Shown piece by piece: positions 3,915 to 32,448 of a stretch of 64,000 nt of DNA. The first letter of the stretch is position 1. Each line of letters opens with the position of its first letter. This DNA is from Desulfobacterales bacterium (GTDB lineage: Bacteria > Desulfobacterota > Desulfobacteria > Desulfobacterales > Desulfosalsimonadaceae). The stretch covers positions 269-64,268 of the forward strand of contig JAGXLR010000001.1 of the NCBI GenBank assembly GCA_018334555.1. Reading direction: 5' to 3'. The position numbers and the translations under genes were made by a program. Under the pieces are notes generated by a model. The model did no database searches. It had not been told where the DNA came from and was given only the letters and a program-made list of their open reading frames with translations.

Positions 3915-4754
3915 TTAGGGTTTGCGAAAGTGAAATACCCCCCATGCCAGATAGCCCTTGTTGCCGCCGTCCACCCAGTGGCGCAGGCCTTTTTTCATAT
4001 TGTCGATATACTCCTGGCTGATTTTGTGCTTGACCTCGTCTTCCCGTTTTTCCAGCTCCTCCAGGATACGGGCGTAGCTTTTTGTCAGATGCGGGGTCAG
4101 CTCCTCAAAATCCACGACCTCAAAACCGATCTTTTTGGCATGTTGCTGATAAAAACCCGGTGATCCCAGGCTCGTCAGATGGATCCGATCATAGATCGGC
4201 TGCAATACATCCTCCGGACAGTCATCGGCCTGCATGGGATCGGTAAATATCATCTCACCGCCGGGTTTCAAGACCCGTTTGGCCTCCTCCAGAACTTTTT
4301 CACGGTTGTCGCTGTGCAGAATCGCATCCTGGGACCAGACGATATCAAAGGATTCATCAGGAAAGGGGATGGTGTCAAAGCTTCCGTCAACGACCTCGAT
4401 CATATGATCCAGCCCCTGTTCCGCGTTCATTTTACGAGCGCGCGCATTCTCAGTTTCACTTAAATTTAAAACCACGACCTCCCAGCCGTAGGTTTTGGCC
4501 AGATACCGGGCGGAACCTGAAAACCCGCCGCCGAGATCAATGATCCGGGCCTTGCGGTTCAAAAATGCCGAACGGGATGCCATATAGTTTATAGTACGAC
4601 GACTCGCATCAAAGACGGAGTCGTCGTCCGACTCGTAAATACCCAGATGCAGGTCCTCCCCACCCCATATAGTATAATAAAAGGTATGGGCATCGTCACT
4701 ATCATAATAATGTTTGGTCGTCTGTACGGTCTCTGTGTACTCCTGGTTGGTCAT
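3915..4754 (-). CDS. Sarcosine/dimethylglycine N-methyltransferase-type SAM-dependent methyltransferase (betaine biosynthesis family)
   Basis: The ORF track gives 3915-4781. The preferred start is the ATG at 4752-4754, preceded by AAGGAGG, giving 279 aa. Blocks YYDSDDAHTFYYTIWGGEDLHLGIY, IIDLGGGFSG (SAM motif I), FTDPMQADDCPE and GLRHWVDGGNKGYLAWGVFHFRK match, as I recall them, the halophile SDMT enzymes. Confidence 0.8.
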   Translation of the reverse strand: MTNQEYTETVQTTKHYYDSDDAHTFYYTIWGGEDLHLGIYESDDDSVFDASRRTINYMASRSAFLNRKARIIDLGGGFSGSARYLAKTYGWEVVVLNLSETENARARKMNAEQGLDHMIEVVDGSFDTIPFPDESFDIVWSQDAILHSDNREKVLEEAKRVLKPGGEMIFTDPMQADDCPEDVLQPIYDRIHLTSLGSPGFYQQHAKKIGFEVVDFEELTPHLTKSYARILEELEKREDEVKHKISQEYIDNMKKGLRHWVDGGNKGYLAWGVFHFRKP

Positions 4755-4928
4755 ATTCGCCTCCTTCATTTTATTTAACAATTTATAAAATTTGCATTTT
4801 AAACTATGCGGAACAGGTATCGGATCCGCGGGTAATGTTTTTATATGTTTGGGTTTTGCCTAATAATTATTTTTTTTTATCTATAGCTTTATATATTTTT
4901 TTCTAACTTCGATTGTAATAAATTGATT

Positions 4929-4957
4929 ATACTAATTTAAAATTTATTATCTGTCAA
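4929..4957 (-). promoter_or_regulatory. Candidate sigma70-type promoter reading toward the methyltransferase/corrinoid operon
   Basis: On the minus strand: TTGACA (4952-4957), a 17-nt spacer, then TAGTAT overlapping TATAAT (4926-4934). Located in the AT-rich intergenic region about 170 nt upstream of the start at 4754. Confidence 0.3.
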
Positions 4958-5363
4958 CAAATTTCTCCGAAACTCAATTATATGTTCAAATATTCACAGG
5001 TTTGTAACGATTAAAATGTTCTTGACAAGGGGGTTTGAGGTATATTAATTGTCCCTATTTGTTCGCTCGGAGATTTCAAAAATGCATGTAATCCCAACGA
5101 ATTATCATTTTAATTGGATTTTCAGAGAGTTATTGATCAAAAAGTAGCTTTCCGTCGACTATGTTTCTAATAAAAATAGATATAAAACCCCTCAAGCGGA
5201 GAGGCGGCACTGAACCGATCGCCCGGACGCCTCCAGAAAATATCAACTTAAAAATTAAGAAATGGATTTATTTTTATTTAAAAAAGAATAACTTTAATAT
5301 ATACCCGGACTAAAGAAAATCAAAAAAACACAGCCCCCAAACACTAATAAACAGGTTGAAATT

Positions 5364-11694: not shown

Positions 11695-13095
11695 ATGAAT
11701 GTCCGAACTTTGGCCCGTTTGGGCATACTTCTGTCCTTAATTGCCCTTATCGGGTGTCCGGCCGGCGACACGTCATTGTCCCGTATCCTTGACCGCAACG
11801 AGATTACCGTTATCACTGACAACAGCGCCCATGGTTACTACATTTACCAGGAACAGGCGATGGGGTTTGAATACGATCTGGCAAAGGCATTCGCTGATTA
11901 TTTGGGGGTCGATCTCAGGGTGATCACGCCCGGGTGGGATAATATGCTCCCCGCCTTAAAATCCGATCAGGGCGACTTCATTGCCTCCGGCCTCACCCGG
12001 ACGTCGAGGCGCGAGTCTCAGGTGGACTTTTCCACCGGCTATATGACGGTTCAGCAACAGGTGGTGGTGCGCAAAGGCAATCGGCGTATTGATGGCATCC
12101 AGGATTTAAACGGCCAAACCGTCCACATCCGAAGCCATACCTCATATAACGAACGCTTGCTGCATTTGAAAGACCGGGGCGTTGAATTAAAAATACGGCT
12201 CCATGACAATATCCCCACCGAAGAATTTTTAAGGCAGATTCAGGAAGGGGAGATCCCACTAACCGTTGCGGATTCAAATATTATACGGCTTAACCGCCGG
12301 TACTATCCGGATATCGTCTCGGCATTCCCGATCTCAGAAAAACAGGAGCTCGGATGGGCGGTCAAAACCGGAGACCAGGCGTTACTTAAAAAGATTAACG
12401 AGTTTTTCCGCCATATCAAAAAAACCGGCGCCTATGCCAAAATATACAACCGCTATTATGCAGGCACAGAAATTTTTGACTACGTGGACATAAAAAAATT
12501 CCATCACCGGCTAAATACCCGGCTGCCAAAATATGAGGCCACCATCCGGGAGACGTCGAAAAAATACAATTTCGATTGGCGCATGATCGCCGCATTGATT
12601 TACCAGGAATCGCATTTTGACCCCCGGGCAAAAAGTTATACCGGCGCTACGGGTTTAATGCAGTTGACCCGTATAACCGCGGATGAGATGGGAGTAAAAG
12701 ACCGGCTTGACCCTGTTGCCAATATCAAAGGCGGCACCCGATATCTCAACCGCCTTTTTCAGAGGTTTGATGAAGTCGGGGGCCGGGATCGAATCAAATT
12801 CGCGCTGGCGAGCTATAACGTCGGCTATGGTCATGTCAGGGATGCGCAAATGATTTCAAAGGATCAGAATCTGGATCCCAATGCCTGGAAGAGCATGAAA
12901 AAGGCGCTTCCGATGCTTAGATATCCGAAGTACTATCAGCGGACAAAATACGGATATGCCCGCGGCACGGAACCGGTCCGCTATGTCAAACGGATCTACA
13001 AATACTATGATATCCTGAGGATGAAGACCGGCGTGGCGGCCGCCGATTTACCGCCATATCCGCCCCAGTCGCCGCCAAGGCCGGAATATAATTAA
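11695..13095 (+). CDS. mltF: Membrane-bound lytic murein transglycosylase F-like protein (solute-binding family 3 domain + SLT domain)
   Basis: The preferred start is the ATG at 11695, giving a lipoprotein-type signal (LSLIALIGC). The N-terminal part resembles a periplasmic binding domain. The C-terminal part carries the SLT motif ALIYQESHFDPRAKSYTGATGLMQL. Confidence 0.8.
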   Translation: MNVRTLARLGILLSLIALIGCPAGDTSLSRILDRNEITVITDNSAHGYYIYQEQAMGFEYDLAKAFADYLGVDLRVITPGWDNMLPALKSDQGDFIASGLTRTSRRESQVDFSTGYMTVQQQVVVRKGNRRIDGIQDLNGQTVHIRSHTSYNERLLHLKDRGVELKIRLHDNIPTEEFLRQIQEGEIPLTVADSNIIRLNRRYYPDIVSAFPISEKQELGWAVKTGDQALLKKINEFFRHIKKTGAYAKIYNRYYAGTEIFDYVDIKKFHHRLNTRLPKYEATIRETSKKYNFDWRMIAALIYQESHFDPRAKSYTGATGLMQLTRITADEMGVKDRLDPVANIKGGTRYLNRLFQRFDEVGGRDRIKFALASYNVGYGHVRDAQMISKDQNLDPNAWKSMKKALPMLRYPKYYQRTKYGYARGTEPVRYVKRIYKYYDILRMKTGVAAADLPPYPPQSPPRPEYN

Positions 13096-13305
13096 ACCTA
13101 AATTGAGCGTTTCTATTTTTTGAAGGTTTAATTTTTATTTTATTTTCAGGATATTGAATCATTTTTTAATCAAAAAATTTGAAACCCTCCGGGATTTCCA
13201 ATTTCACCGCATCTACTGCGTCAAATGATGTCTCGCATAGACAACTATCGCTCGTCATCATTTTCCTTGTATCTGCGGTAAACTTAAAAATCGCTCAATT
13301 TAGGT
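13096..13305 (+). mobile_element. MITE-like element, copy 1 (about 210 bp, 14-bp perfect terminal inverted repeats, flanked by TAA direct repeats)
   Basis: Left end ACCTAAATTGAGCG and right end CGCTCAATTTAGGT are exact reverse complements. TAA lies on both flanks (13093-13095 and 13306-13308). It aligns end to end with 15904-16114. It has no coding capacity. Confidence 0.75.
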
Positions 13306-13311
13306 TAAATT

Positions 13312-14466
13312 ATGGTAATATTAAGGAACAGATACAAAACGGCAACGGCCCTTTTGGCGCTTGGGACGATACTTTTGTGCGGCGCCGCCGTGTTTTTAAT
13401 CCACTGCCGTTTATCGTCTTCAAAAAAAGCTGCGGCACTTTCCTCCGCCCATAAAACGGGCACGGAGGCGAGCGCTCCCCCCATAAAAAAAACGGCCGAT
13501 GGCTGTTGGGAAAGCAGACAAAAAATCTATTTTAACATCCCCGCCCATATCCTTATAACGTCTCCGGATGTGAGCGAAAAGCTCGCGCATAGGGCCATCT
13601 ACAGGGCATGGGCGGAATTCGAACGTCTGGGCCGGATTTTTAATCCGTTTGACCCGGCGGCGGAGGTCGCCAGAATCAATCGAAACAGCGGCGGCGGCGG
13701 GGTGCCTGTTTCAGCCGACCTTTATAGGGCGCTTAAAATTTCCCGAAACCTCTGGGATAAGAGCAACGGATGCTTTGATCCCACTTTTCTCCCGATCAAA
13801 CGGCTCTGGCACCATGCCGAGGAAATACAGGAGATCCCCTCTGAGCGTAAAATTCTTAAAACCCTTCGTCATACAGGATTTGAAAACGTGGGGATCGAAT
13901 CCGAAAAAAGAAATCGGGTCCGAATCGAGAATCCGCCGATCCGTTTCGATTTCGGCGGCATCGCCAAAGGCTATGCGGTCGATCAGGTACGGCAGCTATT
14001 GAAAAAAAACGGCATATCGGACGGTCTCGTCCAATTGGGCGGAGAGGTCGCGGCATTCGGCCGCAATAGGGGCTCCCCGTGGCGGATCGGCATCGAGCAT
14101 CCCAAAAAAAATATGGTACAGCCCTGGGGGGTTATAAGCCGCAACGGCCAAATCCGGGTTTCCACCAGCGGCAACTACCGGCAGCCCCTACGAATTCAGG
14201 GGCAAACCTTTTATCACATTTTCAGCCCCGAGACCGGCAAACCGGTTTCAGAAAAAGTCTTAGGCGTAACCACCCTCAGCGTCACCGGAACCCGCTCAAA
14301 CGCCCTGCTTGACGGCGCGGCCACGGCCATCACCGTTATGGGCGCACGAAACGGCGTAGAATTTGCCGATAAAATGGGCATCGAGGCCTTAATCCTGACC
14401 CGGGGCCATGACCAGACGATCAGGGAAACCATGACCCCGGGATTTCCGGATTTTCCCGGGCGGTAA
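13312..14466 (+). CDS. apbE: FAD:protein FMN transferase (ApbE family), membrane-anchored/exported
   Basis: 384 aa with an N-terminal hydrophobic anchor (ALLALGTILLCGAAVFLI). ApbE-type blocks are present (FDPT, GGIAKGYAVD, VSTSGNY, HIFSP.TG). Confidence 0.85.
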   Translation: MVILRNRYKTATALLALGTILLCGAAVFLIHCRLSSSKKAAALSSAHKTGTEASAPPIKKTADGCWESRQKIYFNIPAHILITSPDVSEKLAHRAIYRAWAEFERLGRIFNPFDPAAEVARINRNSGGGGVPVSADLYRALKISRNLWDKSNGCFDPTFLPIKRLWHHAEEIQEIPSERKILKTLRHTGFENVGIESEKRNRVRIENPPIRFDFGGIAKGYAVDQVRQLLKKNGISDGLVQLGGEVAAFGRNRGSPWRIGIEHPKKNMVQPWGVISRNGQIRVSTSGNYRQPLRIQGQTFYHIFSPETGKPVSEKVLGVTTLSVTGTRSNALLDGAATAITVMGARNGVEFADKMGIEALILTRGHDQTIRETMTPGFPDFPGR

Positions 14467-14491: not shown

Positions 14492-15874
14492 CTATTCGAC
14501 ATATATTTCCACGGCGCCATAGCGAAGTTTTTCCGTATTGAAATCCAAGTCGCCGTTTACAACCGTATCGACCCCGAAATAGACCGTATATTTGCCGGGC
14601 GGCAGGGGGGTTTCCAGCACGGTAAACTCTCCCAGGCTGAACAAAGGGCCTTGATAGCTGGTTGTATCAGGTCCACCCACCCATGCGTCCTCTGTTAGCT
14701 GATAATGAAACCACCCATATGGGGTATCGGCCAACAGCCACCAATCAGCCTCAATGTTGGCAAAGCTCCCGGGGAATAATTCGACCGATAGGGAAACATT
14801 GTCGGTTGACGCTGCGGTTATAGGCCCATCCGATCCATTGGCCTTTATACCGGGAACAATTTCTGAATCACAGACATCGCCGACACCATCGCCGTCGCTG
14901 TCAACCTTGTCCGGATCATCGACCGCTTGCATCCTGACGGTGACGCTCTGAGAATCCGTCTTTTGTTCGTTGTCTTCGACTGTCAACCGGATATCCACGC
15001 TACCCTCGGCATTCGGTGCGACAAACGTCAATGTGTCCCCGGTCTCGGCACTCACTGTGGACTCGATGACATCGGTGATGGCCGTCAAACCCCCAAACAC
15101 GGTCCAGGAATACGAGGCAATGCCGCCGTCCTCATCATGGGATGCCGAACCATCGATGGTTACACAGTCTCCGCCATTGACGCTTTGATAGTCATTGTCA
15201 ACTACGGCATGGGGGGCAATATTTGTGGAATTGATGCAGATTTCCACAATGTCGGTATCCTGATCATTCTCCGCGTCCGTAACCGTCAATTCGAACGTCA
15301 AACAAGAACTTTCCCCCATAACGTTAGGGGCGGTAAATGTCGCAGTTTCCGTATTGGCACCGGAAAGTGTGACTTCCGGCGATCCGTCAGTCTGTTGCCA
15401 CGCATAGGCCAGCGGCCGGCCCAACGGGTCGGCAGAGCCCAAGCCGTCAAGGCTGACTTGCCGGCCTTCTTCATAATCTTTATTCGAACCGGCATCCGCT
15501 TCCGGAGGTTGAGCCTTTAATTCGGCTTCACTGATAAAATACGCATCAACGGATTTATTGGTATTTAAAGTGATGGTCGTCGAGCCGGTACTGCCAGATA
15601 AATCCCCCTCCCATCGGTCGAATTGATAACCCTCGTCGGGCTTGGCTTCTATACTAAGCTCAGCGTCTTTCTCGTAAGTTTGACTGTCTGCCTGTACTAC
15701 CCCACCTACCCAGATTTCGCCTTCCCCCGCTTTGACGGACACGGTCAAAGTTTTTTTGCTGCACGCGGCTCAGCCAGCAGCACTTTTGGGAATCATGGAA
15801 AAAAACAGGATTAACGCAATGCCTGCCGCCAGTCCAAAACGGAAAAAAATTTGAAAACATGCGCCCTTTGCCAT
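14492..15874 (-). CDS. Exported InlB-B-repeat/PKD-like repeat protein with thrombospondin-type Ca-binding motif; reading frame contains one in-frame TGA (15770-15772) directly after the signal peptide
   Basis: The listed ORF 14492-15748 continues upstream in the same frame to the ATG at 15874, which sits 7 nt after GGAGGAGG. That extension encodes the signal peptide MAKGACFQIFFRFGLAAGIALILFFSMIPKSAAG, then TGA, then AACSKK. The body has GYQFDRWEGD (InlB B-repeat-like), repeated PKD-like modules and DSDGDGVGDVCD. Confidence 0.6.
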
Positions 15875-15903
15875 AACAACCGCCTCCTCCTTGGTTTGGT
15901 TAA

Positions 15904-16114
15904 ACCTAAATTGAGCGTTTCAATTTTTTGAAGATTTAATTTCTATTTTATTTTTAGGATATTGGATCATTTTTTAAATCAAAAAATTTGAAACCCTCCG
16001 GGATTTCCAATTTCACCGCATCTACTGCGTCAAATGATGCCTCGCATAGGCGCCTATAGCTCGACATCATTTTCCTTGTATCTGCGGCAAACTTGAAAAT
16101 CGCTCAATTTAGGT
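15904..16114 (+). mobile_element. MITE-like element, copy 2 (same orientation as copy 1)
   Basis: It has the same 14-bp terminal inverted repeats and TAA flanks (15901-15903 and 15115-15117 equivalent at 16115-16117). By eye it differs from copy 1 by roughly a dozen-plus substitutions and one 1-nt indel. Confidence 0.75.
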
Positions 16115-16230
16115 TAAAAAAAGCCAGATTATCCTAATGGACAGTGTTTCGCTTTGTCAATCAGAAAGGCAATTTCGGGATATTACTCAAAAAACGGTAA
16201 GTTATGGGATATCACCCAAAAAAATGGCGG

Positions 16231-17088: not shown

Positions 17089-17717
17089 TGCTGATTCTCC
17101 AGTTTCTCCACGCGCTGAAAAAATTGGTCAAGCGGGTATTCGGGTTTGCGCTTGTTCGGCAGCATAGAAATTTTTTTCTTCCGAAGCAGGCGGATGCCCA
17201 AGGGCGTAAATTTGATCGGAATCGCCGGATTTTTCATTAGGATAAAGTACCGACGCATGAACTCGACCTCGTTGATCCGGCCGTGACGGCGGACGCTGTC
17301 CAGAAAGCTTCCATAGAACCGGGCATTCGGCCGGTATCCGGCGACATCCTTTTTGGCACCCAACTGCTTCAGAAGGTTCATGGCGTCAGTCAACGGCAGG
17401 CCCCGCGGGCATCTCAGGGTACAATAATAGCAGGCCGAGCATAGGGCGAAGGTTTTGCTATGAAATATTTCCTCGGTCTGCCCCATGAGCACGAGCCGCC
17501 AAAGCCTGCGGGGCGTAAAATCCATTAAGTGGGCGTTTCTGCAGGAGGCGGTACAGGTACCGCACTGGATGCATGCGCAGAGTTTCTCCTGAAGCGGTCC
17601 CAGAAGGTCCTCCGCCTTTTCCTCAGGGTAAACGGTAGGGCTGCCTGTCGCAGATAACATGATACGCGTTGCTCCTTCTATACAAATCTCCGGCTCACAC
17701 GGGCCCCATTGCGGCAT
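17085..17717 (-). CDS. hdrC: Heterodisulfide reductase subunit C-like 4Fe-4S protein (start 17717 or, more likely, ATG 17660 after AAGGAG)
   Basis: Has two ferredoxin-type Cys clusters (CIQCGTCTASC and CSACYYCTLRCP) and the length typical of HdrC. Confidence 0.8.
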   Translation of the reverse strand: MPQWGPCEPEICIEGATRIMLSATGSPTVYPEEKAEDLLGPLQEKLCACIQCGTCTASCRNAHLMDFTPRRLWRLVLMGQTEEIFHSKTFALCSACYYCTLRCPRGLPLTDAMNLLKQLGAKKDVAGYRPNARFYGSFLDSVRRHGRINEVEFMRRYFILMKNPAIPIKFTPLGIRLLRKKKISMLPNKRKPEYPLDQFFQRVEKLENQQ

Positions 17718-20700
17718 CGATCATTTCAAACATCTCGGTTTCCGAGCCCTCGGCCAGGACCGTGGCGCTGTTCGGACAGATGGCTGCGCACGCGCCGCAT
17801 CCCTGGCATTTCAACGGATTCACTTCAATCCGGCCGAATTCGGGGTCGATTTCCCGGGCACCGTAAGGGCAGGCCGATATACATAGTTGACAGCCGGAGC
17901 AGAGACTATGCCGAACCACGGCAATTTTCCTGCCCGCAGTCAAGTATTGACGGTTAATCATCCGAACCGCCCGCATGGCAGCGGCCTCCGCCGAAGCCAT
18001 GCTCTCATCAATTAAGCGCGGCGAAAGCGCCAGACCGCATGCGAAAACTCCGGCCGCCAGGGATTCCACCGGCCGCCATTTAAAATCCGCCTCCTTGAAA
18101 AAACCGTGTTCATCCACTTCAGCCCTCAGCTTCGACATCAAGTCCCCGGGCAACACAGGGGTGATGCCGGTGGCAAGAATCAGCAGGTCCGCCTCGATTT
18201 CCACGCTTTGTCCGATGATCGGATCGTTGGCCCTTATGCGGAGCCGGGATGCGCCGTCCCCGTTTTGCCCGGGCACGACCACTTCGGGTTTGGCCTCTGG
18301 GGTATACGGAAAAAAAATAATCCCCTTCCGGCGGGCTTGGGTATAATAGGTCTCATAGAAGCCGGGGGTCATCATGTCCCGGTAGAGGATATATACGGAT
18401 AGGTCTGGATTTTGCTCCTTTAAATACATGGCATGCTTCAATGATGAGAGGCAGCAGACACGGCTGCAATAGTTTCTGGGGGGTTCGCGGCAATCCACGC
18501 ACTGGATCATGGCCACTGAAGAGAGCGCCGCCGGGTCAATCCGCCCCTCCGACCGGGCGGTTTCAAACGCCTTCTGCGTCATGACGGCGGGGCTTTTCCC
18601 ATATCCGTAGCTTTCGGTGGCCCCCTCGACGCCGCCGGTGGCCAGGAGGACCGCCCCATGATGCCCGGTTTGGGCGTTTTTTCCTTCACCGATGGTGCTC
18701 TGAAACCGGCCGACCGAGCCCCGAATATCCGCAACGGTCGAGTTCAAATGCACATGGATCAAGGAATTGTCATTTACCCGGGAGACGGTGGTTTGAAGCC
18801 GTTCGGCCACATCCGCCCCGTCGATGGTCCGGCCCAGCCAATTAAGGTTGCCGCCAAGCTGCTCGGCCTTTTCCACCAGATCGACCCGGAAACCGTGTCC
18901 GGCAATGGCTAGAGCGGCGGTCATCCCGGCAATTCCGCCGCCGATAATCAGCGCGGATTGATAGACAGGAATTTTTTCAGCCGGCCCCCAATGGATCCCT
19001 TTTAACCCGGCAATAGCGAGTTTCAGGCAGCGCTCCACATAGCCGGTGTTATACGGCGTCTGCTCTTTTGCGGGGGCACCGCCGGCAAACCAATCGGAGG
19101 GAAAGACATCTTTTATCTGAACCGCTGCTTCCGGCAGTCCGGCGGCATCGGCGATTTCAAGCCGTCTGTGGGCATATGCATTCGCCGCACAAGTCGCCAG
19201 CAGAATGCGGTTGACGGGTTTGTCCTTTAACTCTTCCAGCATTTTTGCCCATCCGTCGGGGCTGCAAAGTCCGTCCACCTCAAGACATTGGGAAACCGCC
19301 GGCTCCGTTTGTATCCGGTCAAGAAGGACGTCCATATCGATCAGCGCTTTGAGCCGGTCCCCGCAGACACATAGAATAACCAGTATATTCGGCTCTTCCC
19401 GGTTGATATCCCGGTCCCGCCCATCATCTGCTGACTCGACCGTTTCCAGACTGCCGCCGCTCTTGTGTATGGCTTTAGAGGCGCCGCAGGCCGCCGCCCC
19501 CGCCCGTATCACCGCATCATTGATATCGGTTAAGCCGGAGACCGCCCCGCCGAGGAAAACACCAGGGGCTGAAGTCTCTGTGAGGGAGAAGGGCCGGGGG
19601 GCGAGATACCCCCACGGGTTTAGCTCCAGTCCCAGCATTTCCGAAAATTTTTCGGCGTCCTCGGCCGGCCGTTGGCCGACGGACAAAACCACGAGATCGA
19701 AGAGGGCTTCACGGGCGCCATCCATATCCACATATCGGATGGCCAGGCGCGCCCCATCCTCTGAACACGCAACGGAATGCACCCGGCAGCGCTGAAACCG
19801 AACACCCGAGCGTTTGGCATCGTCCAGGTATTGTTGAAACGGTTTTTCAAACACCCGCAAATCCATATGGAAGATAACGGTTTCCACCTGCCCCCCGCCT
19901 ATTTCCCGGGCCAGCATCGCCTCTTTGACAGCCGACATGCAGCAGATGCTGGAGCAGAAATCCGAATCGGTCTGCAGATCCCTTGAGCCCACGCACTGGA
20001 TCCAGGCGATTTTGTTGACGGGCCGCCGATCCGACGGCCTTACCAGCCGCCCCCCGAAAGGGCCGGTGCCGCTGATCAGCCGTTCAAACGCCAGGTGGGT
20101 GACGACATCCGGGTATAGCCCATAGCCGAAAATATCCTTTCCCTCTGCCGGATTAAAATACCGACAGCCGGTGGCAATGATGACGGCCCCCACGCTCAAC
20201 TCGCGCTGCCGGCCCTTTCCGCTTTCCTCATAGAACCGATAGATTTGGGGCAAAAGAAAATCCTCCGAAAAGGGCTTAACCAGATAATCCGCCGCCCCCG
20301 CCTTAATGGACTCAACCGCGCTCTGGACGGCTGCGCAAGCGGTGGTCATCACGACCTGCAACGACGGCTGAACCGCCAGGGCCTCTTTCAATACATCCAC
20401 GCCTTCCATATCCGGCATCTTGATATCCAAAAGCACCAGGTGGAAGGCCTCGGATTTCAACTTTTCCAGGGCGGCCTCCCCGGATTCGGCCGTATCCACG
20501 AGAAACCCCTCCCCGGCCATGAGCGTCTGCAGTTGCTCCCGAACGCTCGATGCCTCATCAGCCACAAGGATTTTAAACTTTTTCCGATCCGCGGCTGCCA
20601 TTCGAATCGCGCCGGTCGGACAAACCGAGACGCATTCGCCGCAGTGGGTGCATGCCGAAAGATCAATCACATGGGTGCCGGGCAGCGCCTGCGGCGCCGG

Positions 20701-21144
20701 CTGATATATGGCCTTTCGGGTCGATAATCCGGCATTGAATGTATCCTTGACTTCAACGGGGCAGGCCTCGGCGCATTGGCCGCACCCCATGCACCGGTTC
20801 GGGTCCACCAAAGTGGGATGCTGGTGCAGCGTGGCGCAAAAGTTGCCCGCCTCGCCAGAGATATCCATAACCTCGGCGGATGCAAGAATCTCAATGTTGC
20901 CATGAAAAAGCCCCCGCCTCAAACATTGCTGACTGGCCTGGTCCGGCTCCACCGCGGGCAGCAGTTTGCACATCCCGCAGCGGTTGGTGGGAAACTGGTG
21001 ATCCAGCTGCTCGAGTATCCCGCCGATATGCGGGGCTTTGTCCACCAAAAATACATGGTAGCCGGTCTCTGCCAGATCGATTGCCGACCGGAGGCCGCTG
21101 ATGCCTGCCCCAATGACCAGTGCGGATCCGGATTTTTCTGCCAT
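17695..21144 (-). CDS. hdrA: Tandem (double) HdrA-like FAD/FeS oxidoreductase with an embedded CheY-like receiver domain
   Basis: 1149 aa containing:
- an N-terminal GxGxxG (VIGAGISGL) and the HdrA motif FPTNRCGMCKLLP
- an inserted ferredoxin (CMGCGQCAEACP, CTHCGECVSVCP)
- residues ~189-306, a complete receiver domain (ILVADE, LLD240, VVMTT, YLVKPF)
- a second HdrA module (IIGGGIAGM, CSRVCC)
- a C-terminal 2x[4Fe-4S]. Confidence 0.85.
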   Translation of the reverse strand: MAEKSGSALVIGAGISGLRSAIDLAETGYHVFLVDKAPHIGGILEQLDHQFPTNRCGMCKLLPAVEPDQASQQCLRRGLFHGNIEILASAEVMDISGEAGNFCATLHQHPTLVDPNRCMGCGQCAEACPVEVKDTFNAGLSTRKAIYQPAPQALPGTHVIDLSACTHCGECVSVCPTGAIRMAAADRKKFKILVADEASSVREQLQTLMAGEGFLVDTAESGEAALEKLKSEAFHLVLLDIKMPDMEGVDVLKEALAVQPSLQVVMTTACAAVQSAVESIKAGAADYLVKPFSEDFLLPQIYRFYEESGKGRQRELSVGAVIIATGCRYFNPAEGKDIFGYGLYPDVVTHLAFERLISGTGPFGGRLVRPSDRRPVNKIAWIQCVGSRDLQTDSDFCSSICCMSAVKEAMLAREIGGGQVETVIFHMDLRVFEKPFQQYLDDAKRSGVRFQRCRVHSVACSEDGARLAIRYVDMDGAREALFDLVVLSVGQRPAEDAEKFSEMLGLELNPWGYLAPRPFSLTETSAPGVFLGGAVSGLTDINDAVIRAGAAACGASKAIHKSGGSLETVESADDGRDRDINREEPNILVILCVCGDRLKALIDMDVLLDRIQTEPAVSQCLEVDGLCSPDGWAKMLEELKDKPVNRILLATCAANAYAHRRLEIADAAGLPEAAVQIKDVFPSDWFAGGAPAKEQTPYNTGYVERCLKLAIAGLKGIHWGPAEKIPVYQSALIIGGGIAGMTAALAIAGHGFRVDLVEKAEQLGGNLNWLGRTIDGADVAERLQTTVSRVNDNSLIHVHLNSTVADIRGSVGRFQSTIGEGKNAQTGHHGAVLLATGGVEGATESYGYGKSPAVMTQKAFETARSEGRIDPAALSSVAMIQCVDCREPPRNYCSRVCCLSSLKHAMYLKEQNPDLSVYILYRDMMTPGFYETYYTQARRKGIIFFPYTPEAKPEVVVPGQNGDGASRLRIRANDPIIGQSVEIEADLLILATGITPVLPGDLMSKLRAEVDEHGFFKEADFKWRPVESLAAGVFACGLALSPRLIDESMASAEAAAMRAVRMINRQYLTAGRKIAVVRHSLCSGCQLCISACPYGAREIDPEFGRIEVNPLKCQGCGACAAICPNSATVLAEGSETEMFEMIDAAMGPV

Positions 21145-27568: not shown

Positions 27569-30500
27569 ATGACACAGCATACGGCAAATGAAAAAGGCGG
27601 GCAAACATTCGGATCGGCAATGGTGGTTGGCGGCGGCATCGCCGGCATGCAGTCCGCCCTCGATCTGGCCAACGCCGGATACTATGTGTATCTGCTTGAG
27701 AAGTCTTCAGCCATTGGCGGAATGATGTCCCAGCTGGACAAGACATTCCCCACAAATGACTGTGCCATGTGAATCATCTCGCCGAAACTGGTCGAGGTCG
27801 GCCGGCACTTGAACATTGAGCTTAGAACCGGAACAGAGCTCATGGGCCTGGAAGGCGAGCCGGGCCATTTCACCGCCCGGGTGCACCAGGAGCCCAGATA
27901 TATAGACACATCAAAGTGCACCAGCTGTGGGGAATGCACCGAGGTTTGCCCCATCGAGATTCCCAATGAATACGACCAGGGGCTCACCACCCGCAAGGCC
28001 ATTTACAAAAAATATGCCCAGGCCATTCCAGGCGCCTATGCCATCAGCAAGCGGGGCACGGCGCCCTGCAAAGCCACCTGCCCCGCCCATGTCAGCATCC
28101 AGGGCTACATCGCCCTTATCAGGGAAAAAAGATATGAAGAGGCCCTCAGGCTATTCAAACAGGACCACCCGTTTCCCGGCATTTGCGGCCGGGTCTGCCA
28201 TCATCCGTGTGAGGACATCTGCACCCGGGGCGACTACGACGAACCCCTGGCCATCCGGGAGCTTCACCGGTTTTTGGCGGACTGGGAAAACAGCCAGGAC
28301 AGCCTGTACGTGCCGGAGATCCCGGAAGAGCGGGATGAAACAATCGCCGTCATCGGCTCCGGTCCGGCCGGACTTGCCGCCGCCTATTTCTTGAGGCGCG
28401 AGGGCTATTCGGTCACTATTTTCGAAAAACTCCCGGTAAAAGGCGGCATGATGGCCGTTGGAATACCGGAATACCGGCTGCCGCGGGACATTCTGGCAAA
28501 CGAGATAGGCGTCATCGAAAAGATGGGGGTCACTATAAAAACCGGGGTCTCCTTTGGCGGCGACATTACCCTGGACAGCCTGCAGGCCGATGGGTATGCC
28601 GCCGTTTTTCTGGGCATCGGCCTGCACGGTGGCCGCCGCTTGGGCGTGGAAAACGAGGATGCGGCGGGCGTTCTCCAGGGCGTTGATTTTTTGCGGGCCA
28701 CGGCCATGGGTGAAGAAACTGCCGTTGGCAAGGATGTCCTCGTGATCGGGGGCGGTAATGTGGCTATTGATGTTGCGCTCACCGCCAAACGCAAAGGGGC
28801 GGAGAACGTAAAAATGGTTTGCCTGGAAACCCGCGAGGAGATGCCGGCCTGGGCGCATGAAATCCGGGAAGCCCTGGAGAGTAATATCGAAATTATCAAC
28901 AGTTTCGGCCCCAAGTCCTTTTTTATTGACAAGAACAACCGGTTTTCAGGCATAGAGTTTAAAACCTGCACGGCCGTTTTTGATGAAAATGGCCGTTTTT
29001 CGCCAAAATACGATGAGAATGCCTGCCAGTCCTATTTCGGCGATACGGTAATCATCGCTATCGGCCAAAAGGCGGAGCTTTCCGGCATTACCGATCAGAA
29101 TATCCCCGTTTCCAAAGCCGGCGGCCTGGAGGCCGACCCCGTAACCCTCCAAACACCCATTGAATGGGTATTCGCCGGCGGAGATGTGTTCTACGGGCCC
29201 AAATCCGTAGTCGAAGCCGTCGCCTGCGGGAAAGAGGCCGCGGAAAGCATCTGCCGATACATCGACGGTAAGGATCTTTACGAGGGCCGTGAGAAAGACT
29301 GGACGTATGAAAAGCCGGATGCCATTGATGAGCCCCATAAACCGCGCGTACCGGTCCGTTGTCTTGAGCCGGAGGCCCGGGAGTGCAACTTCCTTGAGGT
29401 ATCCTTCGGATACGATGAGTCCGAAGCCCAAATTGAAGCCGACCGGTGCCTGAAATGCGGCATCTGCTCGGAGTGCTACCGATGCGTGGACGCCTGCCTG
29501 GCAGGGGCCATCGACCATACGCAAACAGCCGTTGATGAAGATCTGGAGGTGGGCTCGGTTGTTCTCTCTGCCGGCAACGAGGTTTTCGATCCGTCCACGC
29601 TGGAGGATACCTATCGTTATAAGAGCCACCCAAACGTGATCACCAGCCTTGAATTCGAACGGTTTTTAAGCGCATCAGGCCCTACGATGGGCCATTTGGT
29701 GAGGCCATCGGACCATAAGGAGCCGAAAAAAATTGCCTGGCTCCAATGCATCGGATCAAGGGATACCAATCGCTGCGGCAACGGTTACTGCTCATCGGTC
29801 TGCTGCATGTATGCCATAAAAGAGGCCATGATCGCCAAAGAGCATGCCAAGGAGGAACTGGACGCGGTTATCTTCAACATGGATATCCGGACATTCGGCA
29901 AGGATTATGAGAAGTATTATCTAAGGGCCAAGGAGGAAATCGGCGTCCGGTTTGAAAAAGCGCGGGTCCATACCATTAATGAAGCCGAAACCCCCGGAAG
30001 CCTGATCCTTCGCTTTGCCAAAGAAAACGGCGAGCTGGTAAAAGAGGAATTCGACATGGTGGTCCTCTCCGTCGGCATGCAGGTGTCGCCCGCCACCATT
30101 GAAAATGCCAGACGGCTGGATATCGAGCTGGATCAGTACAACTTTGCCGTCACCTCCCCCTTTGAACCGGTATCCACCAGCCGGCCGGGCGTTTTTGCCT
30201 GTGGGACCTTCCAGGGGCCAAAGGATATTCCGAGCTCCGTTACCGAAGCCAGCGCTGCCGCCTGTGCCGCCGGCAGAGATCTGGCCGCTGCCCGGGGGAC
30301 AAGGACGAAGACGGTCGAAATACCGGAAGAAAAGGATGTTGAAGGCGAAGAACCGCGGATCGGGGTTTTTGTCTGCGACTGCGGCATCAATATTGCCGGT
30401 GTTGTCGATGTCCCGGCGGTTCGGGAGTATGCCGCCACCCTGCCGCACGTGGTCTACGCGGGCGAGAATCTCTTCACCTGCAGTCAGGACGCCCAGGACA

Positions 30501-32020: not shown

Positions 32021-32448
32021 GTGAAGTATTCGAACCCATCATTCTCGCATTCTGCTGCAACTACTGAGGATACTCAGCTGCGGACCTGGCAGGTTCGATG
32101 CGACTGACTTACCCGACCAGCCTCCGGATCATCCGGGTGCCATGCTCCGGAAAGGTAGATATTATTCATATCCTTCGGGCATTTGAGAAAGGCGCCGATG
32201 GCGTTTGCGTGATTGGCTGCAGGGAGGGCGAGTGTCATTTCAAAACAGGGAACTTTCGTGCCCGCAGACATGTGGAACAGGCCCAAACAGTGCTCGATAC
32301 CATTGGTATAGGCGGCGAGCGGGCGATGATGTACAACCTCTCTTCAGGGGACGGCCCTTTATTCGCCAAGTACGCCGAAGAGATCTATGAAAAAATCAAG
32401 GCGCTGGGGCCGAATCCAATCAGAAGGCAAAAAAAGCATGCGGCATAA
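32017..32448 (+). CDS. mvhD: MvhD-like protein, selenocysteine form; in-frame TGA at 32065-32067
   Basis: The ATG at 32017 follows GGAGGA by 6 nt and overlaps the hdrA stop (ATGA). The frame reads [26 protein letters not shown] and joins the listed ORF at 32098. The Sec aligns with the second Cys of CNWCTY in the paralog at 22324-22749. Confidence 0.8.

Follow-up and report, generated by a model that had tools for sequence, protein, structure and literature searches.

Selenoprotein genes of the Escherichia coli fdhF type carry an in-frame UGA and, downstream of it in the coding region, a stem-loop, the bacterial selenocysteine insertion sequence (bSECIS), in which G[G/U] starts a small apical loop at 16-37 nt from the UGA. 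Predicted exported selenoproteins with a signal peptide and selenocysteine (Sec, U), some of them with a U-x-x-C motif, include DsbA-like, DsbG-like and thiol:disulfide interchange proteins and SaoB, SaoX and SaoC, with the Sec situated in a thioredoxin fold, in a substrate-binding pocket or, in SaoC, at the C-terminal end, and nearly all accepted selenoprotein families possess a Cys homologue (PMC13188914). Roughly 111 selenoprotein families and subfamilies are collected in BSepDB (BSepDB paper, PMC13326102). Here we describe a gene at 14492-15874 on the minus strand of a 64,000-nt stretch of DNA (the window) from the Desulfobacterales bacterium assembly GCA_018334555.1 (JAGXLR010000001.1, positions 269-64,268), in which a signal-peptide frame continues through a single in-frame TGA into a protein of InlB B-repeat and PKD domains. 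We estimate at about 80% the probability that this is one intact gene for an exported selenoprotein, with Sec as the most likely meaning of the conserved TGA. The estimate rests on comparison of sequences, namely on the conserved UGA, the shared frame on either side of it, the conserved and covarying hairpin and the decoding of Sec elsewhere in the genome; in addition we infer SelB dependence, the cleavage site, a Se-S partnership and a biological role. The mechanism in this reading is ordinary bacterial Sec recoding, and what differs from the exported selenoproteins described above is the place of Sec, at the signal-peptide junction of an InlB-repeat/PKD scaffold.

The open reading frame (ORF) listed for this region, 418 aa from the TTG at 15748, is the tail of a longer frame opened by the ATG at 15874-15872, as had been proposed from the letters of the window alone (hereafter the sequence-only reading). 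Direct reading gives 34 codons for MAKGACFQIFFRFGLAAGIALILFFSMIPKSAAG, then the in-frame TGA at 15770-15772, as stated there, and then a frame beginning AACSKKTLTVSVK..., which runs 425 codons to the TAG at 14494-14492 (Table 1). The spacer between the Shine-Dalgarno (SD) sequence GGAGGAGG and the ATG, previously given as 7 nt, is 8 nt.

When the joined sequence was searched against proteins, the relatives recovered, close and distant alike, all begin abruptly at or just past 'TLTVxV', without a signal peptide. In the DNA of these relatives, a homologous signal peptide was found upstream in the same frame, with TGA at the equivalent junction, in each of nine other lineages that share 35-59% protein identity with the window, eight of them of Desulfobacterales type and one from the Dehalococcoidia. 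The ten distinct lineages compared are the window, L001, L002, L082, L003, L004, L007, L008, L083 and L009, and the junctions (with the TGA as *) read ...KDASAG*ASCKHTLTVSVK in L001, a Desulfobacterales metagenome-assembled genome (MAG) syntenic with the window, ...QEAAG*GGVTLTVEVK in L002, ...NDAAGG*ASCSYTLTVSVK in L082, ...NDAAG*GSSNLTVTV in L003, ...NDAAG*GGTEYRLTVNV in L004, ...FDAAG*GGPTLTVTV in L007, ...NDAAG*GSSNLTVIV in L008, ...AAAEAG*GNDPLTVDV in L083 and ...SPAEAS*PKCPKLTVV in L009, a Dehalococcoidia MAG of different architecture. TGA stands at the junction in 10/10 lineages and Cys, Leu or any other sense codon in 0/10, and the indels that separate it from the LTV motif are whole codons. 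From -110 to +200 relative to the TGA, three independent JGI metagenome assemblies of the same species as the window (L022-L024, 98-99% identity) do not differ, except for one substitution at +176 in L024, so that a sequencing error and a strain-private mutation are both excluded. Codon differences between lineages within the signal peptide follow the order 3rd > 1st > 2nd position, which indicates that the piece upstream of the TGA is coding.

This conservation bears directly on an alternative put forward in the sequence-only reading, that a lipoprotein gene with an L-A-A-C lipobox was killed by a single change of TTA or TTG to TGA, possibly in connection with the flanking miniature inverted-repeat transposable elements (MITEs). 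A one-base change of the TGA does give Leu, L-A-A-C does fit the lipobox, and a MITE does lie in the 5' leader; however, TGA occupies the equivalent position in all ten lineages and in the three independent same-species assemblies, neither Leu nor any other sense codon takes its place in any orthologue, the Cys at +3 is missing altogether in six of the ten, and the 425 codons downstream are intact and 93-99% conserved in close relatives. The probability of a nonsense-mutated pseudogene is practically negligible, and the proposal of a dead lipoprotein gene is refuted by this comparison. The TGA could also be a true stop that ends a 34-aa hydrophobic leader peptide, after which the repeat protein would either be left untranslated or be made, lacking a signal peptide, by ribosomes that re-initiate at a TTG or GTG close by. 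Gene callers indeed annotate mini-ORFs of 34-35 aa and 48 aa followed by a truncated ORF, and for other ORFs of the window TGA serves as an ordinary stop, but no conserved start codon or SD sequence exists downstream of the TGA among the lineages, where the callers chose TTG, GTG or, in L009, an ATG 75 codons on. In addition, the frame is kept across the whole-codon indels, and the constraint on synonymous sites of the hairpin described below would be left unexplained. Since the domain content is extracytoplasmic, a signal peptide is expected on the protein, and under a true stop this extracytoplasmic InlB-repeat/PKD protein would have no export signal. We consider a true stop very improbable.

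A Cys form at the Sec position was not found in a genome scan, a metagenome scan, a set of 5.8 billion proteins or a representative set of 1.84 billion proteins. It was looked for with a profile built from 8 N-termini in which C took the place of U, run against the 5.8 billion proteins, together with the genome and metagenome scans, and only distant InlB lipoproteins, with the lipobox Cys at a non-equivalent distance, were recovered; phmmer with the window signal peptide against the 1.84 billion representative proteins gave a single match, which is another TGA lineage (L082). InlB B-repeat (TIGR02543/PF18998) lipoproteins such as P0126-P0131, L034, L040 and others share with the new family a signal peptide, a short linker and an InlB B-repeat starting (Y)xLTVxV, and P0126 in addition has the L003-type rhodanese insertion, but they carry a Cys lipobox, a longer linker, no TGA and no hairpin-forming codons, and are distant homologues, not orthologues. 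With the Cys homologue missing, pipelines that depend on Cys/Sec pairs would miss the family.

The perfect 7-bp hairpin CUUUGAC-CGUGUCC-GUCAAAG, starting 19 nt past the UGA, is present in the window as had been described, with a UGA-to-loop distance of 26 nt and GU at loop positions 2-3. The stem core CUGAC/GUCAG is found in 10/10 lineages, the loop is CGUGNNN except for GGUC in L009, and the stem reaches 6-7 bp in seven lineages (window, L001, L002, L082, L004, L083 and L009). RNAalifold independently predicts exactly the same hairpin, and in the 10-sequence alignment 91.4% of the cells are paired, compared with 17-34% when the 3' arm is slid. Compensatory changes occur at 3/7 pairs (columns 8-28, CG/GC/AU; 9-27, UA/GU/AU/GC; 10-26, UA/CG). 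These paired-cell and covariation figures, taken from the alignment, are supportive and not proof, and two controls are stronger. In the stem, each of the invariant Leu, Thr and Val residues is written with essentially a single codon (TTG|CTG, ACC, GTG, GTC), and 3-4 codons serve for the invariant four-fold residues (A, G, P, L) in other parts of the same domain. The 5-bp core accompanies the LTVxV peptide in only 2/21 InlB-repeat genes without an upstream TGA, against all of the Sec-adjacent cases. Judged from these sequences, the hairpin is conserved as an RNA element in its own right and does not simply follow from the peptide. The window has a single copy of the DNA motif TGACCGTGNNNGTCA (0.01 expected), and among the first 82 loci fetched the motif is found at TGA loci only; L083 carries it as well, and L009 is a TGA locus without it, having the shorter loop. 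The orthologue comparison proposed in the sequence-only reading, with both TGA and hairpin kept, thereby supports its suggestion of Sec in an exported protein with a downstream SECIS hairpin.

In the bSECIS model, as summarised from Zhang and Gladyshev, the loop measures 3-9 nt and the stem 4-16 bp, G stands within the first two loop positions and usually has G/U after it, the UGA-to-loop distance is 16-37 nt and the energy is -7.5 kcal/mol or lower (PMC13188914). The geometry of the new family falls within it, with a loop of 7 nt (4 in L009), a stem of 5-7 bp, CGU.. or GGUC in the loop and a spacing of 17-26 nt as measured in 9 lineages, the value of 17 nt for L083 being read directly. The GGUC loop of L009 matches what we take to be the apical loop of fdhF. 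On the other hand, several features set the family apart from the fdhF-type genes: an AU-rich stem of only 5-7 bp, an energy that for the hairpin alone misses -7.5 kcal/mol in most lineages, and a position at the codons for the first beta-strand (L-T-V-x-V) in a structural repeat domain. A SECIS built from the codons of such a beta-strand would be a clean case in which RNA and protein constraints overlap. On the plus strand, the complement of the hairpin together with TTTTTTT (15729-15751) scans as an intrinsic-terminator-like site; an antisense terminator was rejected, the T-run being the complement of two Lys codons, not conserved in orthologues and with no plus-strand gene feeding in, and the resemblance was judged to be chance.

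Both sites at which the sequence-only reading saw UGA recoded in this genome were borne out. The HdrA-like gene carries its in-frame TGA, a Sec site, at 27770-27772 (+), and a full-length match to the MvhD/FlpD domain (PF02662) spans the TGA at 32065-32067 (+), reading ...FCCNY-U-GYSAADLAG; the ORF listings split both genes at their TGA, and HdrA and MvhD at 27770 and 32065 are classic selenoproteins. The HdrA Sec site also adjoins the new gene in L003 and L004, and a split HdrA-like gene flanks L083. The canonical HdrA and MvhD sites in the window and the HdrA sites in L003 and L004 are, as sequence evidence, strong though indirect indications that these genomes can decode Sec. Global reassignment of TGA was rejected, as TGA terminates 9 of the 43 window ORFs of at least 250 codons. 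The HdrA and MvhD/VhuD genes share with the new gene one genome, site-specific UGA recoding and comparably modest downstream structures; they differ in that they encode cytoplasmic redox enzymes in which Sec takes the place of a Cys known to act in catalysis or in a cluster, with abundant Cys homologues, whereas the new protein is exported, non-enzymatic by its fold, and gave no Cys form in our searches.

Selenium-independent read-through, in which a standard near-cognate tRNA (Trp, Cys or Arg) decodes the UGA under stimulation by the hairpin and the residue is not Sec, would equally be expected to leave a conserved UGA and hairpin, and it accords with the lack of Sec machinery genes in the window and with a hairpin that is weak for a SECIS. 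However, the genomes concerned decode UGA as Sec at the canonical HdrA and MvhD sites, the loop sequence and spacing match the bSECIS model, and the presence of exactly one partner Cys per protein, shown below, is typical of Sec/Cys redox pairs. We know of no established mechanism by which a hairpin lets bacteria read through UGA efficiently with a standard amino acid, which counts further against this explanation, and we regard it as highly improbable.

Features of the signal peptide and the cleavage site were read by eye against the -3/-1 rule. K/R is found within the first 3-12 residues, followed by a hydrophobic stretch of about 15-20 residues, and none of the ten signal peptides contains a twin-arginine motif. 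The residues preceding Sec are P-K-S-A-A-G, P-K-D-A-S-A-G, P-Q-E-A-A-G, P-N-D-A-A-G and P-F-D-A-A-G, and in the remaining lineages A-N-D-A-A-G, P-N-D-A-A-G-G, A-A-A-E-A-G and S-P-A-E-A-S. Pro lies at about -5 to -8 in eight of the ten (not in L008 and L083), and a charged K, D or E at -3, -4 or -5 in all ten. If the cut precedes Sec, A, S or G occupies both -3 and -1 in nine lineages, and A-E-A of L009 would put Sec at +2. By this sequence pattern the c-region looks like that of signal peptidase I substrates (helix-breaking Pro, a charged or polar residue, small residues at -3 and -1), and the odds are about even that Sec forms residue +1 of the mature protein (the second in L009).

The same residues allow a different processing to be weighed, in which Sec is inserted as +1 of a lipobox and Lgt and signal peptidase II act on A-A-G-U to give a lipoprotein anchored by a diacylglyceryl-selenoether. 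The [AS]-[AG]-[GS] before Sec and the small G, S or A after it are as in many lipoproteins, and the distant InlB-repeat homologues are ordinary Cys lipoproteins, including P0126 (LGVGC; InlB-plus-rhodanese architecture). Against the lipobox rule, which we take to be that of PROSITE PS51257 ([LVI][ASTVI][GAS]-C, no charge in the six positions before -4), we found by eye Sec instead of Cys at +1, charges near the site and no aliphatic residue at -3, where Leu, Val or Ile, and thus the usual Leu, occurs in none of the lineages. The charge near the site in all ten and the Pro at about -5 to -8 conflict with that rule and fit a signal peptidase I c-region, and an anchored selenolipoprotein is improbable.

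With respect to the partner of Sec, U-x-x-C is found in 4/10 lineages only (window, L001, L082 and L009), and the remaining six read U-G-G-V, U-G-S-S, U-G-G-T, U-G-G-P or U-G-N-D, with no Cys at +3. The 'UxxC selenoprotein' of the sequence-only reading is therefore right for these four, but the others hold their single Cys inside the InlB repeat, about 25-40 residues downstream in or near a '(S)CGY' turn (L002, L003, L004, L007, L008 and L083). Exactly one Cys is present in the N-terminal domain in 10/10 lineages, at +3 or distal, never both and never neither, and lineages of either state are mixed in the tree, L002 falling in the window clade yet having the distal Cys. Such a single-Cys regularity is what a Sec needing one resolving or ligating Cys would look like, and from this pattern we give about even odds that the two are paired. 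In TsoA (NF045695, LULAxC motif; Haft and Tolstoy 2025, listed in PMC13188914), compared here by name and model only, Sec also stands a few residues before A-x-C, superficially like U-A-A-C of the window, but NF045695 has no match to the window protein and the motif is not family-wide here. In eukaryotic TrxR (GCUG), SelK and SelS, Sec and one partner Cys lie on an unstructured terminal arm of a folded body. This is an analogy only, because those arms are C-terminal, cytosolic or in the endoplasmic reticulum (ER) and served by a 3'-untranslated region (3'-UTR) SECIS, whereas the arm considered here is N-terminal and exported, with the SECIS within the coding region.

Several observations weigh against an exported selenoprotein at this locus. 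The point on which the family departs most from the usual criteria for selenoproteins is that no Cys homologue was found. None of selA, selB, selC and selD was seen in the 64-kb window, and no tRNA either. A cut only one to three residues later would remove Sec along with the signal peptide. In the window strain, the 5' leader of the gene is interrupted by the MITE at 15900-16118, which separates the promoter from the ribosome-binding site; the element is present in the same-species L022-L024 and absent at the orthologous positions of L001, L002 and L082, and the ORF is, despite it, intact and conserved in related strains. Within the hairpin, the four innermost stem pairs are invariant and hence carry no covariation information, and the covariation score, attained by 0/500 shuffles, is to be read with caution, as the ten lineages are related and shuffle controls overstate significance. 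The energy of the hairpin alone, -4.3 to -7.6 kcal/mol, is borderline with respect to -7.5 kcal/mol, and local folds of 47 nt reach -7.7 to -14.0 kcal/mol without always including it. In an 81-nt context, the minimum free energy (MFE) structure from RNAfold favours another fold (z = +2.08 against shuffles, that is, no extra stability). The claim of the sequence-only reading that the geometry is the one expected of a bacterial SECIS stands for loop, stem, spacing and G/U; in the folding check of this context the hairpin is not the MFE structure and the region is no better than shuffles. With single-sequence folding so unimpressive, the evidence beyond chance rests on the orthologue comparison. 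Rfam, in gathering and E-value modes, gave no relevant match at the hairpin, a result that is uninformative since the HdrA and MvhD Sec sites are unmatched too.

Taking the exported selenoprotein as the preferred reading, we propose the following course of expression. Translation from the ATG at 15874 would produce a Sec-pathway signal peptide, and the UGA at 15772-15770 would be recoded when the hairpin at 15750-15730 recruits SelB with Sec-tRNA(Sec); after insertion of Sec, translation would go on to the TAG at 14494-14492, to give a 460-residue precursor. After export, signal peptidase I would cut, most likely after A-A-G, and leave a 426-residue mature protein with Sec first, composed of an InlB B-repeat, two PKD domains and a C-terminal beta-rich domain. 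Sec would then be carried on a short flexible N-terminal tail, probably with the nearby Cys as a selenylsulfide redox site or a chalcogen- or metal-binding site on a surface scaffold. As a working guess, the role would be extracytoplasmic selenylsulfide redox chemistry or the capture of metal or chalcogen on that scaffold. A more far-reaching idea, unlikely but worth stating, is that Sec as the very first residue of an exported surface protein is used for covalent chemistry of the cell envelope, which could be a selenoether lipid anchor through the lipoprotein pathway, a Se-S tether to an envelope component or an N-terminal aminoselenol 'brace' that captures metal or chalcogen. If true, this would be the first selenoprotein in which Sec is defined by signal-peptide processing and not by an enzyme active site, in a family without any Cys counterpart.

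The body of the window protein contains, according to Pfam, one InlB B-repeat (Flg_new_2) at about 15536-15706 and two K319L-like PKD domains at about 14945-15493, followed by an Asp-rich linker and a C-terminal beta-rich domain. In the AlphaFold2 (AF2) model, the predicted local distance difference test (pLDDT) score is above 90 for residues 10-280, covering the InlB repeat and both PKD domains, and the C-terminal 130 residues are poor. A thioredoxin fold is absent according to both Pfam and AF2, with InlB B-repeat and PKD beta-sandwiches instead, and Foldseek against the PDB returned only generic multi-Ig adhesin- or cadherin-like chains. Across lineages, the N-terminal module of signal peptide, Sec and InlB repeat is joined to differing bodies: PKD-PKD and a C-terminal domain in the window, PKD-PKD and about 400 aa of repeats in P0004 and P0008, rhodanese, three PKD domains and a C-terminal domain in L003, L004, L007 and L008, and two InlB repeats with a C-terminal membrane anchor in L009. 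With bodies so varied on a common N-terminus, the conserved unit is the Sec-bearing N-terminus. The rhodanese of L003, L004, L007 and L008 is apparently inactive, as the by-eye alignment places Asp at the expected catalytic Cys. In the closest cross-species orthologues, P0008 (L001, 3001-5061) and P0004 (L002, 374-2446), the window's C-terminal domain is replaced by about 400 residues of repeats of about 110 aa, with the motif 'FPH[IV](A/D)S...W(W)TG'. The window protein has, at about 14865-14905 (-), 23 residues (GCDNCPDAFNPAQTDTDGDGVGD) fewer than the 93%-identical GEM protein P0001, and this gap in the Asp-rich, thrombospondin-type-3-like linker looks like a repeat-mediated in-frame deletion.

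The family does not appear to have been described. The selenoprotein models of NCBIfam release 20.0 (June 2026) gave no match to the window protein even at E = 10, and neither the table of the 2026 review nor the BSepDB paper includes a PKD, repeat, secreted or surface selenoprotein family (PMC13188914, PMC13326102); an earlier description in Haft and Tolstoy 2025 is conceivable, though the NCBIfam models from it do not match. Every public copy seen, including one in an NCBI MAG annotation, is split: an orphan ORF of 34-48 aa comes first, and the rest is annotated as a 'PKD domain-containing protein' that is truncated at its N-terminus and lacks a signal peptide. The family would extend the BSepDB catalogue in an unusual manner, with no oxidoreductase fold, no Cys form found and Sec at the signal-peptide junction of an adhesin-like scaffold, and an N-terminal Sec outside the cytoplasm of sulfate reducers and Dehalococcoidia would suggest extracellular redox or metal/chalcogen chemistry based on selenium.

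Table 1. Features of the proposed selenoprotein gene and its upstream region, in window coordinates
Feature	Position	Strand	Remarks
Conserved upstream block TTTTTGAGTAATATCCCGAAAYYGYCTTWYTGA	16161..16194	-	Nearly invariant in four lineages with proteins only 54-59% identical
Sigma-70-like promoter TTGACA-18 nt-TAGGAT	16131..16160	-	Scored 10 of 12; TTGACA and surroundings kept in L001, L002, L082
MITE-like insertion, about 218 nt, 21-nt terminal inverted repeat (TIR) TTAAACCTAAATTGAGCG / TTAAACCTAAATTGAGCGTTT	15900..16118	.	Second copy at 13092-13309
SD sequence GGAGGAGG	15883..15890	-	Read directly; 8 nt before ATG
Signal peptide coding region, 34 codons	15773..15874	-	n-region MAKG..R, hydrophobic core, c-region P-K-S-A-A-G
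In-frame TGA, proposed Sec codon	15770..15772	-	Residue 35 of precursor; kept in 10/10 lineages and 3 same-species assemblies
TGC, single Cys of N-terminal domain (U-A-A-C)	15761..15763	-	Sequence reading
SECIS-like hairpin CUUUGAC-CGUGUCC-GUCAAAG	15730..15750	-	Perfect 7 bp; encoded by first beta-strand codons L-T-V-S-V-K
Coding region after TGA, 425 codons	14495..15769	-	Pfam; AF2 model; stop TAG 14492-14494

The two MITEs reported on either side of the gene are indeed there, as copies of about 218 nt in the same orientation, 82-94% identical over aligned segments, and together they bracket the gene and the convergent gene for ApbE (FAD:protein FMN transferase). Farther upstream, the block included in Table 1 may be, from its conservation, a candidate operator or site for a regulator. 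The intergenic sequence TTTTTGAGTAATATCCCGAAA...TTGACA extends over window 16161-16215 (-) and is preceded in the window by a degenerate direct copy (GTGATATCCCATAAC / GTAATATCCCGAAAT).

Recurrent neighbours of the new gene are the Sec-containing HdrA-like and HdrB/C-like genes and the convergent ApbE gene, located at 13312-14466 (+) in the window and at about 3971-5192 (-) in L003-L005. The new gene adjoins Sec-containing HdrA-like genes in the window, L003, L004 and L083, with a cytochrome c3 gene also in the flanks of L083, and this recurrent neighbourhood could reflect shared synteny or a functional link. Flavinylation of the new protein by ApbE was considered and dropped, since a by-eye search for [ST]GA[ST]-type motifs gave only the PKD-typical LSGAN. 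Just upstream, in the same orientation, window 17695-21144 (-) encodes an HdrA-like protein of 1149 aa, which has Cys, not Sec, at the HdrA site and an embedded response-regulator receiver domain (FKILVADE...LLDIKMPDMEG), for which Pfam PF00072 is listed in the L001 orthologue.

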